From NCBI RefSeq assembly GCF_050920415.1, contig NZ_CP169309.1: a stretch of 64,000 nucleotides of DNA; one strand, given 5' to 3'. The stretch comes from Escherichia coli (GTDB lineage Bacteria > Pseudomonadota > Gammaproteobacteria > Enterobacterales > Enterobacteriaceae). The translations under genes and the position numbers were made by a program. Under the pieces are notes generated by a model. That model made no database searches. It was given only the letters and a program-made list of their open reading frames with translations, and was not told the origin of the DNA. Position 1 is the stretch's first letter, and the number at the start of each line of letters is the position of its first letter. This document shows positions 3,329 to 22,839 of the stretch, in pieces.

Positions 3329-4531
3329 ATGACACAATTCGCTTCTCCTGTTCTGCACTCGTTGCTGGATACAGATGCTTATAAGTTGCATATGCAGCAA
3401 GCCGTGTTTCATCACTATTACGATGTGCATGTCGCGGCGGAGTTTCGTTGCCGAGGTGACGATCTGCTGGGTATTTATGCCGATGCTATTCGTGAACAGG
3501 TTCAGGCGATGCAGCATCTGCGCCTGCAGGATGATGAATATCAATGGCTCTCAGCCCTGCCTTTCTTTAAAGCCGACTATCTTAACTGGCTACGCGAGTT
3601 CCGCTTTAACCCGGAACAAGTCACCGTGTCCAACGATAATGGCAAGCTGGATATTCGTTTAAGCGGCCCGTGGCGTGAAGTCATCCTCTGGGAAGTTCCT
3701 TTGCTGGCGGTTATCAGTGAAATGGTACATCGCTATCGCTCACCGCAGGCCGACGTTGCGCAAGCCCTCGACACGCTGGAAAGCAAATTAGTCGACTTCT
3801 CGGCATTAACCGCCGATCTTGATATGTCGCGCTTCCATCTGATGGATTTTGGCACCCGCCGCCGTTTTTCTCGCGAAGTACAAGAAACCATCGTTAAGCG
3901 TCTACAACAAGAATCCTGGTTCGTAGGCACCAGTAATTACGATCTGGCGCGTCGGCTTTCCCTCACGCCAATGGGAACACAAGCACACGAATGGTTCCAG
4001 GCACATCAGCAAATCAGCCCGGACCTTGCCAACAGCCAGCGAGCTGCACTTGCTGCCTGGCTGGAAGAATATCCTGACCAACTTGGCATTGCGTTAACCG
4101 ACTGTATTACCATGGATGCGTTCCTGCGAGATTTCGGCGTAGAATTTGCCAGCCGCTATCAGGGCCTGCGTCATGACTCTGGCGACCCGGTTGAATGGGG
4201 CGAAAAAGCCATTGCACATTATGAGAAGCTGGGAATTGATCCGCAGAGTAAAACGCTGGTTTTCTCTGACAATCTGGATTTACGCAAAGCGGTTGAGCTA
4301 TACCGGCACTTCTCCTCCCGTGTGCAATTAAGTTTTGGTATTGGGACTCGCCTGACCTGCGATATCCCCCAGGTAAAACCCCTGAATATTGTCATTAAGC
4401 TGGTGGAGTGTAACGGTAAACCGGTGGCGAAACTTTCTGACAGCCCTGGCAAAACTATCTGCCACGATAAAGCGTTTGTTCGGGCGCTGCGCAAAGCGTT
4501 CGACCTTCCGCATATTAAAAAAGCCAGTTAA
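3329..4531 (+). CDS. pncB: Nicotinate phosphoribosyltransferase
   Basis: ORF track 3281..4531; start chosen at internal ATG 3329 ([19 protein letters not shown]) giving 400 aa, the length I recall for PncB; divergent from pepN as in K-12. Confidence 0.93.
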
Positions 4532-17890: not shown

Positions 17891-19193
17891 GCGCCTGTAC
17901 CTTGGCTCCGTAATCATTAATCGGCTGCCATTTCGCTGGCAGTCCGGTGAAATCTGCTTGCGCTACGCCAAGACGTACCGCCTGATCAATAACAATGCGC
18001 GCAACGTCAAAGTGACGTGCACGCGGATACTGTGACAGATATTCGCGTACCACCAGACCAAGATCCAACGGCACTTGTCTGGTTTTGTACACGGCAAGTT
18101 GTTCTTCGATGATCGCCGCCAGCTGTTCGCGGATCTCGTTAAACTCTTCGTACTCCAGATCCTCAGGAAGTTCCCCAGTCACCTCTTCATCGCGCAGTGC
18201 CATCTCTTCGTCACGCATATCCAGCAGACGATCGGCATTGGCATAAGTTAGCGCCCACGGTTCATCAAAATAGGTTTGTACCGACTGACGTAACCGCTGA
18301 GCAAAGACGCGGTTTTTATCCATATCGATAGCGGTACGAATAAATTTGTGTACGTGGCGGTCGTAGCCAATCCATAAGTCGATGGATTGCTGGCCCCAGC
18401 TGATAATACGGTCAAGTTTGCTTTGCAGATCGAACACCAGACGATCGACGAAATGCAGATCATCATGAGTCATCGTCGCATCCTGAATGCGTAACAGATT
18501 AGCCTGCAATTTATCACCTGCCGCTTCCAGCGTATCCTGCAATTCACGCAGCGTTCCGGAAGTTTCCGAAAGCAACAATTCGCAGCTGGAAATCGCCGCC
18601 CGCCAGTCTTTGTTCAGCAACTGGGCGATATCATCTTTCACCTGCTGCTGCTGTTCGTCCATCAGACGTTGCGTCAGGTCGATGCTGTCGAAAATTTCTG
18701 CTACCGAATATTTCAGTGGCGCATAGACATTACGGTGCCAGTGAAACTCATCACCGCCCTCTTCGGCGGCATCTGCCGCGCGTTTCAGTTCGCCCGCCAC
18801 AATCGACAACTGCATAGAAAGGCGCAGCGTCGAAAACTCGCGCTGACGGATGTAGTAATCGGTAATACCGATGCCAAGCGGCGTCAGACGGTAAATTGCG
18901 TTCCCTTCAGCCTGCTCGCTGGTAAAGCGGTTCAGCAGACGTTGACGCACCATGTCGTTGATCGCGTTGTTGGCGCGCACGCCGATGGTTTCGCTGGTTT
19001 GCTCAAACGCATCACTCACATGGCGGAATGCATCCACCAGCTCGCCTTCACTCATCTCACCATCCAGACGCTCGCCGTTCAGCGTGGCAACTGCCAGCAG
19101 AAAAGAGAGTCGGTCTACCGGCAGCGAGATGGAGAAGTCATTTTTTCTGGCCCAGGCAACCAGTTCGGGGACTGTCTGGGAAAATTCACTCAT
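17871..19193 (-). CDS. mukF: Chromosome partition protein MukF (kleisin)
   Basis: 440-aa ORF, N-terminus [20 protein letters not shown]; immediately upstream of mukE-mukB. Confidence 0.95.
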
Positions 19194-19975
19194 ACTTTAT
19201 CCTTGCTCTGCGGTTTGCGCGCGGTGACATGAATATAACGCCCCAGGGTAATATACGGTTCCTGACGGCAATAACGCGTTTCTAATTCAAGTAATGCTTC
19301 ATAGCAGTCGCGCTGCTGGTGCTTCTCGCGCAGGTAATCATGAAACACGCGAACGCCGGTCTTACCCATAATTTGCCAACCAGCTTCTTCCAGCCACAGA
19401 TAAACCTGCGCCGGGTCGCGTGGATAATCTGGCGAAAGCGTCCGTTTTTTCTTTTTCGGCATTCCCGCCTGCACGTAATCAAAATTCCCGGCGACCATGT
19501 TATGCATCAGCAAGCCGTGCGCATTGTAGAACATTAACGACAACACACCGCCTGGACGTAACACTGACCACAGGGTCTGCAATACGCTGCGGGGATCGGC
19601 CACCCACTCGAGCACCGCATGGAACAATATCAGATCAACGGGCGTTTCCAAATGCGAAGCAACATCCTGAGCGGCGCAATGTATAAATTGCATGTTGTCG
19701 CTCACACCTTTTGCTTCTGCCGCCTGTTTTGCGCGGTCGATCATCTGCGCTGAAAGATCGCATAAAATGACCTGATGCCCACGCTCGGCCATTTTGATTG
19801 CGGTCTGCCCTTCTCCACCGCCAGCATCCAGCACACGCAGTTTTTGCGAGCCCATTTCCGCCAGCACGCGATCGAGATCCTGCCACAGAATAGCCTGTCG
19901 AAGCTGCCCTTTGGTGGTGCCGTAAATGTTACGGGAAAACTTTTCCGCAATATCATCAAAATTGCGATCCTGCAT
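19190..19975 (-). CDS. cmoM: SAM-dependent methyltransferase CmoM (SmtA), tRNA cmo5U methyl ester formation
   Basis: ORF track 19190..19987; start chosen at the ATG at 19975 ([13 protein letters not shown]); SAM-binding motif VLDAGGGEG visible; stop overlaps the mukF start (ATGA). Confidence 0.88.
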
Positions 19976-20110
19976 TGCTTTCTCCACCGGTTGGCTAAGA
20001 CGTTTTCTGATAAAGACGCTATTTTGTCACAGCCACGGCGAGAATGAACCCGTCTGGTGTAATATCGCTGGCGATCCCTTGCTATATGGTCAAAAAAGGA
20101 ACCAGAAAGG

Positions 20111-20890
20111 ATGCTTTTTACACTGAAAAAAGTGATTGGCAATATGTTGCTGCCACTTCCGCTGATGTTGCTGATTATTGGCGCTGGCCTGGCGCTGCTG
20201 TGGTTTAGCCGTTTTCAAAAAACCGGGAAGATTTTTATTAGCATTGGGTGGCTGGCGCTCTTGTTATTGAGTTTGCAACCGATAGCCGACCGCCTGCTGC
20301 GTCCCATCGAAAGCACCTATCCGACATGGAATAATTCGCAAAAAGTGGACTATATCGTGGTGCTCGGAGGTGGTTATACCTGGAACCCGCAGTGGGCACC
20401 GAGCTCTAATTTAATCAATAACAGTCTGCCACGCCTGAATGAAGGTATCCGCTTATGGCGCGAAAATCCGGGATCAAAACTGATCTTCACGGGAGGCGTA
20501 GCAAAAACCAATACGGTGAGTACAGCCGAAGTAGGTGCCCGAGTTGCGCAATCGCTGGGCGTGCCGCGCGAGCAAATTATCACTCTGGATTTGCCAAAAG
20601 ATACCGAAGAAGAAGCTGCGGCAGTGAAACAGGCAATTGGTGACGCACCTTTCCTGCTGGTGACCTCCGCATCACATCTGCCGCGGGCGATGATCTTTTT
20701 TCAGCAGGAAGGGTTAAATCCGCTACCAGCCCCGGCGAATCAGTTGGCCATCGACTCGCCGCTTAATCCGTGGGAACGAGCTATCCCTTCTCCAGTCTGG
20801 TTAATGCATAGCGATCGTGTTGGATATGAAACGCTTGGCCGCATCTGGCAGTGGCTGAAAGGTTCGTCAGGCGAGCCACGGCAAGAGTGA
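20111..20890 (+). CDS. elyC: Envelope biogenesis factor ElyC (YcbC), DUF218 family inner-membrane protein
   Basis: 259-aa ORF with an N-terminal hydrophobic segment; divergent from cmoM as in K-12. Confidence 0.85.
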   Translation: MLFTLKKVIGNMLLPLPLMLLIIGAGLALLWFSRFQKTGKIFISIGWLALLLLSLQPIADRLLRPIESTYPTWNNSQKVDYIVVLGGGYTWNPQWAPSSNLINNSLPRLNEGIRLWRENPGSKLIFTGGVAKTNTVSTAEVGARVAQSLGVPREQIITLDLPKDTEEEAAAVKQAIGDAPFLLVTSASHLPRAMIFFQQEGLNPLPAPANQLAIDSPLNPWERAIPSPVWLMHSDRVGYETLGRIWQWLKGSSGEPRQE

Positions 20891-21760
20891 TTTTGATGCC
20901 AGATCGAAGTTGCGCCGACTAAATCGTCCGGTATTAACCAGTTGCGCAACTTCATCCCATAACACATACAACCAACGCCGCCAGATGAACGACTCCGCCA
21001 CTGGCGCGCGTTGCAGATAACTCCAGAGCAAATCTTCCGCCAGAGAATTATCCATTAGTCGGAACAGTTCGTATTCTCGCGGTGCCCAAAGCATTAGTCC
21101 CGGTCCGACCATCGCCAGTAACTGATCGCTGCGCGAATCTTTCAGCATGCTGCCTAAACAGAAGTTACCGTGAATCAGCACACAATTGTCGTTAAAGCCT
21201 TCAAATAATGCCGGGAGACATTCACGGGTGCGAAACAGGATCCGCTTATCTTGCATCGTTAGACCGGTGTTATTGAACTGATTGAGCGTAGTCCATAGCA
21301 CTTCAACATGTTGCCGGTACCATGAGGGCCAGAAATTTTCCTGAGTATTGTCGACCGCGCCGACGCAACCACGACTGTCCTGACGGTGCCAGGCCAGTAA
21401 GGCTTCAACGATTTGGTCTTTGAGTTGTTCCCAGCGTTCTGGTGTTCGGGCTGGTGCCTCCACCGAAACACCACGCATTCGCTCCAGTAGCAGGACATCG
21501 GGGCCGGGGTGTTCTTCATGCGTCATCACACCATAAATAGTCGGCATACGGACAGTCCCACTTCTTGCCAGCATGGTGGTTTTCCATGCCAGTTGTCGGG
21601 CTCTTCCGGGCGCACTAAAGCTTCTTGCCATTAACGGCATTGGGTTTCCCTGGCTGTCATACAAAGCCCACAACGCCGTATCCGCTTTTTCATTGACGCA
21701 CTCAATACGACTGAGTTTTTCGCCCAGTAAATGGCTTAATTCGGCACGCAGCTGTTCCAT
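20867..21760 (-). CDS. ycbJ: Uncharacterised protein kinase-like / aminoglycoside phosphotransferase-fold protein YcbJ
   Basis: 297-aa ORF; the HGNF...D pattern resembles the catalytic loop of APH/choline-kinase-like phosphotransferases (inference); 3' end overlaps elyC by 24 nt in convergent orientation. Confidence 0.8.
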   Translation of the reverse strand: MEQLRAELSHLLGEKLSRIECVNEKADTALWALYDSQGNPMPLMARSFSAPGRARQLAWKTTMLARSGTVRMPTIYGVMTHEEHPGPDVLLLERMRGVSVEAPARTPERWEQLKDQIVEALLAWHRQDSRGCVGAVDNTQENFWPSWYRQHVEVLWTTLNQFNNTGLTMQDKRILFRTRECLPALFEGFNDNCVLIHGNFCLGSMLKDSRSDQLLAMVGPGLMLWAPREYELFRLMDNSLAEDLLWSYLQRAPVAESFIWRRWLYVLWDEVAQLVNTGRFSRRNFDLASKSLLPWLA

Positions 21761-21913
21761 TCAGATTACCCTCATAAAAGCTACTGCTTTCATAATGAGC
21801 GCCAATATAAAAGATGTCACCTGAATGAGATCAATTGTTGAAAAGAAAAATTGAGGAAAATCGTAACGGTACGACACTCCTCCCAAAATTGGCTGGAGTG
21901 TCGTGAAGTGAAA

Positions 21914-22839
<926 letters not shown>

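Follow-up and report, generated by a model that had tools for sequence, protein, structure and literature searches.

The ycbJ gene of Escherichia coli, convergent with elyC, probably encodes a pseudokinase related to fructosamine-3-kinase

Among the described systems, the fructosamine-3-kinase (FN3K) family (human FN3K, 9CX8/9CXM; T. fusca, 3F7W; H. somnus, 3JR1; PF03881) is the best structural and sequence relative of YcbJ, the product of a gene in the 64,000-nucleotide (nt) stretch of Escherichia coli DNA analyzed here (contig NZ_CP169309.1 of assembly GCF_050920415.1; the whole stretch is referred to as the window). YcbJ and the FN3K proteins have the same bilobal fold and a length of ~290-310 amino acids (aa), and human FN3K is the closest solved relative of YcbJ. 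The HG of the catalytic loop, the Pro after the DFG-type position, the C-terminal helices, and the Glu of '(S/R)E(F/Y)(E/D)L' (E229 in YcbJ) all align, and the Fructosamin_kin domain is recognized in distant YcbJ relatives (24-28% identity) and in many orthologues from Yersinia, Serratia, and Erwinia. In contrast, the E. coli protein encoded in the window has no PF03881 match at E ≤ 1, and lacks both the FN3K catalytic set and the ketosamine-binding residues Trp219, Asn284, Asn287, and His288.

YcbJ also resembles the aminoglycoside and antibiotic phosphotransferases, or APH enzymes (PF01636; APH(2'')-Ia, APH(4)-Ia, APH(3')), with a Pfam APH match above the gathering score and template modelling (TM) scores of 0.67-0.74. 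However, it lacks the Brenner motif HxDxxxxN and the metal-binding Asp, and ycbJ is a chromosomal core gene that is restricted to Enterobacterales and is not tied to resistance or mobile elements. A further likeness is found in HER3 ('HRN') and in the JH2 domain of JAK2 ('HGN'), where Asn stands in place of the catalytic Asp within a well-folded, conserved kinase domain that works by binding. HER3 and JH2, however, belong to the protein-kinase branch and bind ATP, retaining both the beta3 Lys and the DFG Asp, whereas E. coli YcbJ has lost those residues. To our knowledge, few pseudoenzymes have been described in bacteria. At the level of the locus, the closest described systems are convergent excludons: the transcripts of ycbJ and of the opposing gene elyC overlap in published data (PMC12288877), as do their coding sequences (24 nt). 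The functional hallmark of an excludon would be mutually exclusive expression of the two genes. In the table that lists ycbJ as oxygen-responsive, elyC does not appear (PMC3688515).

The ycbJ gene and its annotation, the overlap with elyC, the overlapping transcripts, the anaerobic induction, the effect of the Keio deletion, and the glycogen phenotype seen with the ASKA clone are already known. No functional, activity, or pseudokinase study of YcbJ was found in the literature searched, with most subscription journals outside its coverage. The gene called 'ycbJ' in B. subtilis is an unrelated gene that shares the name. In the best-studied bacterium, ycbJ is a function-unknown gene, and thousands of genomes carry it under the name 'YcbJ family phosphotransferase'. 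If YcbJ cannot transfer phosphate, this name misleads, and to look for its 'substrate' is to pursue the wrong question.

We consider it likely that E. coli YcbJ is a pseudokinase, that is, a stable, anaerobically induced, kinase-fold protein acting by binding instead of phosphotransfer. YcbJ would be a soluble descendant of a fructosamine-3-kinase-like small-molecule kinase, which would have kept the bilobal kinase fold and lost the catalytic machinery, and it would work through binding a ligand or a partner without phosphate transfer.

The kinase-like fold is supported by several comparisons. The Pfam APH model (PF01636) matched YcbJ over residues 63-249 with 28.8 bits (gathering score 23.2; E 1.3e-6), whereas the NCBIfam APH(3') equivalog model reached just 12.4 bits against a cutoff of 205. 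The AlphaFold2 model, calculated from a 42-sequence alignment, has a mean predicted local distance difference test score (pLDDT) of 93.6 and a predicted TM score (pTM) of 0.89. The best Foldseek matches of this model were 3F7W, human FN3K (9CXO), 3JR1, APH(2'')-Ia, and APH(4)-Ia, with E values from 6e-14 to 1e-10 and the TM scores given above. A direct sequence search of the PDB with YcbJ found only human FN3K (E 0.008), and a profile built from YcbJ and its more distant relatives found FN3K at 1.4e-14, together with several APH enzymes. These results indicate that, as modelled, YcbJ has a bilobal kinase-like fold, in agreement with the APH-type or protein-kinase-like fold proposed in a preliminary description of this DNA, which was made from the sequence alone. 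The statement in that description that YcbJ has no known substrate also stands.

The catalytic residues were compared with those of ~35 relatives at 19-28% identity, all of which carry the beta3 VxK, the alphaC Glu, HGDxxxxN, and IDP. In the alignments with these canonical relatives, all five catalytic hallmarks are replaced in E. coli YcbJ (Table 1), and the HMMER alignments of YcbJ to FN3K agree on the residue equivalences. The beta3 Lys, the catalytic Asp, and the DFG Asp, by which a pseudokinase is recognized, are therefore all missing, as are the alphaC Glu and the catalytic-loop Asn. In addition, the glycine-rich loop is unrecognizable, and the residues of FN3K that contact the substrate or the gamma-phosphate, Trp219, Asn284, Asn287, and His288, align with Cys201, Asp269, Ala272, and Gln273 of YcbJ, respectively. 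The segment H197-G-N199-F-C-L-G-S204, followed by V218-G219-P220, contains the 'HGNF' (residues 197-200) that the preliminary description had taken for part of a catalytic loop, 'HGNF...D'. It does not form a working one, as the family has HGDxxxxN and IDP where YcbJ has HGN199xxxxS204 and VG219P, and it appears from the alignments to be a relic of the catalytic loop. Hence the kinase fold of the preliminary description stands, whereas its phosphotransferase reading is unlikely, the catalytic residues being absent.

In human FN3K, the D217N substitution 'completely abolishes' kinase activity in vitro, and D234N leaves none (PMC11754801). Because each of these single substitutions inactivates FN3K, YcbJ would, by analogy, have lost phosphotransfer.

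A side observation concerns codon 203, within the relic loop (21152-21154, minus strand), which is GGC (Gly) in the source strain and CGC (Arg) in other E. coli, a private substitution. The 61 nt around this codon were matched exactly in only one of 5,410 genomes, that of the source strain itself, and the sole difference from strain 7/2 within those 61 nt is at 21154 (C versus G). Arg203 is kept in 73 of 78 Enterobacteriaceae species and in Plesiomonas.

The YcbJ family has a narrow distribution: of 1.84 billion representative proteins, just 201 match it at E ≤ 0.001, and a pattern scan of one genome per species found a relative encoded in 289 of 100,044 species. The best 80 of these 289 species are all labelled Enterobacteriaceae except for one 'Chryseobacterium sp.' record and one 'Proteobacteria bacterium' metagenome bin. 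Named orthologues also come from Serratia, Yersinia, Rahnella, Brenneria, Pectobacterium, Dickeya, Erwinia, Sodalis, and Plesiomonas, and several of the canonical relatives were named fructosamine-3-kinase by metagenome annotators.

Across the family, the catalytic positions form a graded series. Plesiomonas shigelloides is fully canonical, with the beta3 K, the alphaC E, HGD..N, and DPG. An unplaced metagenomic lineage, P0126, has the beta3 K, the alphaC E, HGN..T, and DPG, and the Yersiniaceae, Pectobacteriaceae, and Erwiniaceae have the beta3 K, the alphaC E, HGN..S, and NPG. In Cronobacter and Dryocola, the beta3 residue is R or K and the alphaC residue Q, with HGN and NPG; in Escherichia, Salmonella, and Enterobacter, these are R and L, with HGN and GPG. 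For the intermediate P0126, a taxonomic placement was attempted and given up, since its best named relatives, Sodalis and Erwinia, are only 48-49% identical. Reading the ancestral function from gene context was likewise unsuccessful, as the canonical relatives P0217 and P0222 (22% identity) have unrelated neighbours.

For the 90 clusters from outside Enterobacteriaceae (Yersiniaceae, Pectobacteriaceae, and Erwiniaceae), Lys46, Glu57, Asn199, and Asn219 are invariant, in an alignment where only 67 of 297 columns are. For the 78 Enterobacteriaceae species, position 46 is R, Q, K, or H, position 199 is N, S, or H, and position 219 is G, N, S, or D; the catalytic positions lie at the 59th-79th percentile of variability, and 145 of the 297 sites are invariant. 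As far as can be read from these alignments, the change took place in two phases, namely an early switch to an Asn/Asn pocket that was then held fixed, and a later relaxation of the constraint on the pocket in Enterobacteriaceae, in which the rest of the protein stayed constrained. YcbJ would most likely be a bacterial pseudokinase from the FN3K/APH small-molecule-kinase branch with an unusually clear stepwise record, and its family supplies natural variants in a graded range, from fully canonical through Asn/Asn to degenerate, which are open to direct laboratory comparison.

Several points weigh against the assignment of YcbJ as a pseudokinase that acts by binding. Its inactivity is argued by analogy with its homologues, and the binding role is the one that would be assumed by default. 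Certain kinase-fold proteins without the canonical residues can still catalyze or bind ATP, as in CASK, SelO, SidJ, HER3, and JAK2 JH2. Outside Enterobacteriaceae, the invariant Lys/Glu/Asn/Asn set shows that the pocket itself is selected, which would also fit unconventional chemistry or nucleotide sensing, and across Enterobacteriaceae, His197-Gly198, Ser204, and Pro220-Gly221 are invariant.

These same residues, K46, E57, N199, and N219 outside Enterobacteriaceae, where they place the pocket under selection, and H197, G198, S204, P220, and G221 within it, speak for YcbJ still being an enzyme, with a non-canonical Asn/Ser/Gly site that phosphorylates or otherwise modifies a small molecule. 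Given the neighbouring genes, this molecule might be linked to 3-deoxy-D-manno-octulosonic acid (Kdo) and lipopolysaccharide (LPS) or to the enterobacterial common antigen. The Pfam APH score above the gathering threshold also fits an enzyme, as does the gene order beside kdsB and elyC, which is kept in the loci examined, save for one that has no elyC (L003). However, human FN3K is inactivated by either of the corresponding single substitutions, D217N or D234N, and YcbJ has kept neither the glycine-rich loop nor the FN3K substrate-contact residues. Moreover, the pocket positions drift in Enterobacteriaceae whereas the rest of the protein is conserved, which is unexpected for catalytic residues. 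We therefore regard an enzymatic YcbJ as unlikely, though it is the main rival explanation; given the invariant Lys/Glu/Asn/Asn set, YcbJ may be an unconventional enzyme at least in the lineages outside Enterobacteriaceae.

The ycbJ gene is under strong purifying selection. Against seven genomes of Escherichia, Salmonella, Citrobacter, Enterobacter, and Leclercia, its whole-gene ratio of nonsynonymous to synonymous substitution rates (dN/dS) was 0.02-0.06, compared with mostly 0.04-0.06 for elyC, 0.05-0.12 for cmoM (in most comparisons 0.05-0.07), and 0.01-0.03 for the essential kdsB. YcbJ is 297 aa long in 78 of the 80 species loci. The residues that are invariant in the family, W124-H125, D212-Q213-L214, A226-P227-x-E229, and the C-terminal L-x-P-W, mark candidate functional surfaces. 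The loss of all the catalytic residues might also be expected of a kinase-gene remnant, a functionless pseudogene in the making, and no phenotype of ycbJ is separable from that of elyC, as the Keio deletion of ycbJ inactivates elyC too (bioRxiv 10.1101/2025.02.11.637708). In a decaying gene, however, neither the low dN/dS nor the intact 297-aa frame would be expected, nor the presence of the gene in 5,425 of 5,426 complete E. coli genomes, the conserved promoter and ribosome-binding site, and the documented regulation of its expression. Because of the dN/dS values and the near-universal presence in E. coli, ycbJ is not a decaying gene in our reading, and we consider the remnant explanation extremely improbable.

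Expression of ycbJ responds to oxygen. In the absence of O2, the sigma-70 occupancy at ycbJ in chromatin immunoprecipitation sequencing (ChIP-seq) rises from 36.8 to 572.8 (PMC3688515 Table S2), and the aerobic/anaerobic mRNA ratio is 0.216, i.e., a 4.6-fold change (PMC3688515 Table S12). The gene belongs to a small set of orthologues whose expression goes up when oxygen is limiting, the induction of ycbJ being 6.1x in Dickeya, 4.9x in Pectobacterium, and 3.3x in E. coli (PMC3349551), and it responds to low oxygen in Yersinia intermedia as well (PMC3792023).

Upstream of ycbJ, the -35 and -10 elements of a predicted sigma-70 promoter, the TTGATCTCAT element, and the Shine-Dalgarno-like GAGGG (Table 1) are kept across ~20 genera, whereas the surrounding intergenic sequence is not. 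The resulting conservation island, TTGATCTCAT..GGTGACATC..N..CGCTCATTAT, is seen in the same ~20 genera, and within this region GATCTCA-N6-TGACATC is an imperfect inverted repeat (6 of 7) that fits the FNR, CRP, and ArcA consensus sites poorly. The FNR-like site TTGATCTCATTCAG lies ~41.5-42.5 bp upstream of the predicted transcription start, so that its TTGAT would fit a class II position, and activation of ycbJ by FNR is noted in an older compilation (PMC2634741). Direct control by FNR was nonetheless rejected. FNR matches with two mismatches number 43 in the window, close to the 33.6 expected by chance, and of the site upstream of ycbJ only the distal half is conserved. PMC3688515 lists ycbJ neither among its FNR ChIP-seq peaks and predicted sites nor among its fnr-dependent operons. 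In the ArcA supplements, ycbJ has no entry.

The 24 nt shared by the two coding sequences (20867-20890) contain the stop codons of both ycbJ and elyC, as seen in the list of open reading frames (ORFs). Among the related Enterobacteriaceae loci examined, the overlap is 24 nt long in 70, 21 nt in five, and 36 nt in two, and so is not particular to the source strain. It is absent from four loci of the Citrobacter freundii group (gaps of 35-117 nt), from Plesiomonas (30 nt), and from the lineage of P0139 (locus L005, 107 nt). In the C. freundii group (L011, L021, L023, and L035, at ~3894-3990), elyC stops before ycbJ, and its product has the tail ...QWLKGxEH; these loci are natural controls for any role ascribed to the overlap.

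The two protein tails encoded in the overlap differ in constraint. The last eight residues of YcbJ are KSLLPWLA in 51 of 76 loci, whereas those of ElyC come in 48 variants among 76 loci, with the tail missing in the C. freundii group. A consensus scan found no intrinsic terminator between, or just past, the stop codons of ycbJ and elyC. Because the ElyC tail is unconstrained, the 3' end of ycbJ is constrained, and no terminator lies between them, the simplest reading of these sequences is that the coding overlap would be a passive by-product of tightly packed genes and not a selected coding device; it is missing in some species because ElyC ends earlier there.

A hairpin located 15 nt past the elyC stop codon (within 20891-20980; -21.4 kcal/mol, z -3.4) was considered as an elyC terminator inside ycbJ and was rejected, as it is not conserved. 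Across 31 species, 69.3% of the cells pair, against 68.7% in shuffles; this level is matched by 78 of 500 shuffles, and most genera have a disrupted central stem. The region past the ycbJ stop codon folds no better than shuffles (z -0.66).

The preliminary description had proposed that the convergent transcripts necessarily overlap, and this overlap is documented in vivo: the core excludome of E. coli MG1655 compiled with ExcludonFinder, which comprises the pairs seen in at least 50% of 58 MG1655 RNA sequencing samples, includes ycbJ-elyC among its 165 convergent pairs (PMC12288877). In addition, the defects of an elyC mutant vanish without oxygen (PMC8849086). Regulation of elyC by convergent transcription, through the antisense or interference effects that the preliminary description allowed for, may take place, and it has to be asked whether transcribing ycbJ is what matters, with an oxygen-regulated excludon lowering ElyC without oxygen and the YcbJ protein being secondary. 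The membership in the core excludome, the absence of an intrinsic terminator in the scan, and the anaerobic induction of ycbJ are all consistent with this, and ElyC is dispensable exactly when ycbJ is on. On the other hand, elyC (ycbC) is not in the table of oxygen-responsive operons that lists ycbJ (PMC3688515 Table S12). The gene also persists without elyC, in L003, and without the overlap, in Plesiomonas, the C. freundii group, and L005. Furthermore, a dN/dS of 0.02-0.06 and 145 invariant residues indicate that the protein sequence itself is selected, so that the locus is more than a transcriptional device. Owing to these selection data, which also disfavour a decaying gene, we consider a role through transcription alone very unlikely.

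The protein and transcript levels can be joined in one reading, in which YcbJ would be a stepwise kinase-to-pseudokinase record within a single order and, at the same time, part of an oxygen switch for envelope biogenesis. In a first stage, represented by Plesiomonas, there would be an active FN3K-like enzyme. The second stage would be the Asp-to-Asn 'double-dead' form of Yersiniaceae, Pectobacteriaceae, and Erwiniaceae, in which the fixed Lys/Glu/Asn/Asn pocket would still sense a nucleotide or metabolite, and the third would be the Enterobacteriaceae form, including that of E. coli, with the pocket positions released from constraint. Oxygen-controlled transcription of ycbJ into elyC would then turn down an envelope factor that the cell requires only aerobically. 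We hold this combined reading, in its entirety, to be quite unlikely.

The standard Keio design keeps the last 21 nt of the deleted gene. A Keio deletion of ycbJ would take out the elyC stop codon (20888-20890), with ElyC then reading into the scar, and this loss of the stop would account for the similar behaviour of the ycbJ and elyC deletion strains. As the standard ycbJ knockout inactivates elyC, the published ycbJ phenotypes are not interpretable, and linking the anaerobic induction of ycbJ to the oxygen-dependent phenotype of elyC requires clean alleles. In a screen of the ASKA collection, overexpression of ycbJ gave a glycogen-excess phenotype (PMC2853380).

The locus agrees in its coordinates with the preliminary description, which had placed a 297-aa ORF at 20867-21760 with its last 24 nt over the 3' end of elyC; the ORF list, the profile matches, and RefSeq all give the same arrangement. 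YcbJ matches NCBIfam NF007890 (PRK10593) with 565.9 bits (cutoff 319), residues 1-297 aligning to model positions 1-297, and ElyC matches NF007794 with 512.1 bits, this equivalog model being covered over its full length. The features are collected in Table 1.

Table 1. Coordinates in the window of the ycbJ-elyC locus, of the replaced catalytic positions of YcbJ, and of the upstream elements of ycbJ
Feature	Position	Strand	Description
ycbJ coding sequence	20867..21760	minus	ATG start, 297 aa + stop; FN3K/APH-like kinase fold, predicted pseudokinase
elyC coding sequence	20111..20890	plus	259 aa + stop; DUF218 envelope biogenesis factor, convergent with ycbJ
ycbJ/elyC coding overlap	20867..20890	both strands	24 nt; YcbJ tail KSLLPWLA, ElyC tail SGEPRQE
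Arg46	21623..21625	minus	Replaces ATP-anchoring beta3 Lys (FN3K Lys41); context LMARSF
Leu57	21590..21592	minus	Replaces alphaC Glu that pairs with beta3 Lys
Asn199	21164..21166	minus	Replaces catalytic Asp of HGD (FN3K Asp217)
Ser204	21149..21151	minus	Replaces metal-binding catalytic-loop Asn (FN3K Asn222)
Gly219	21104..21106	minus	Replaces DFG-type metal-binding Asp (FN3K Asp234); VGP instead of IDP
Predicted sigma-70 promoter of ycbJ	21792..21820	minus	-35 GTGACA, 17-nt spacer, -10 CATTAT
TTGATCTCAT element beside -35	21821..21834	minus	Resembles FNR/CRP-family half-site (TTGATCTCATTCAG, 2 mismatches to TTGATN4ATCAA)
Shine-Dalgarno-like GAGGG	21769..21773	minus	8 nt 5' of ycbJ ATG; read from the sequence
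Stem-loop 3' of kdsB	21871..21904	minus	-22.2 kcal/mol, z -4.8; between kdsB and ycbJ promoter

The window is part of the E. coli chromosome. In the RefSeq labels on the identical stretch of E. coli MFDS1022581, mukB-mukE-mukF-cmoM is followed by elyC on the opposite strand and then by ycbJ-kdsB-ycaR-ycaQ-lpxK-msbA. Over the 2 kb around ycbJ and elyC (20000-22000), the window is 100% identical to MFDS1022581, and 5,423 other complete E. coli genomes are 95-99% identical; an identity of at least 99% is reached by only two of 5,425 complete genomes. In the GTDB representative labelled 'E. coli E69', the synonymous substitution rate (dS) of ycbJ is 0.59, indicating considerable divergence at this locus in some of the records that carry the E. 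coli label.

The position of ycbJ 3' of kdsB is shared by the window, L001, Plesiomonas (L002), and L003, and L005 begins just upstream of ycbJ, with the neighbour out of view. The gene order in Plesiomonas, kdsB-ycbJ-elyC, is that of E. coli. In L003, an unplaced Enterobacterales metagenome contig (3944-6787), ycbJ (P0126) has kdsB on one side and cmoM on the other, and elyC is missing at that position.

The stem-loop 3' of kdsB, which has no canonical U-tract, escaped the terminator scan. In other genera, GC-rich palindromes of differing sequence occupy the same position, suggesting that a structure here has a conserved role, for instance in terminating kdsB transcription or in protecting the 3' end of its mRNA.

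On the other side of elyC, cmoM and mukF overlap by 4 nt (19190-19193), as is typical of translational coupling. The mechanically called cmoM ORF starts with a GTG at 19987, four codons 5' of the annotated ATG (19975-19987).

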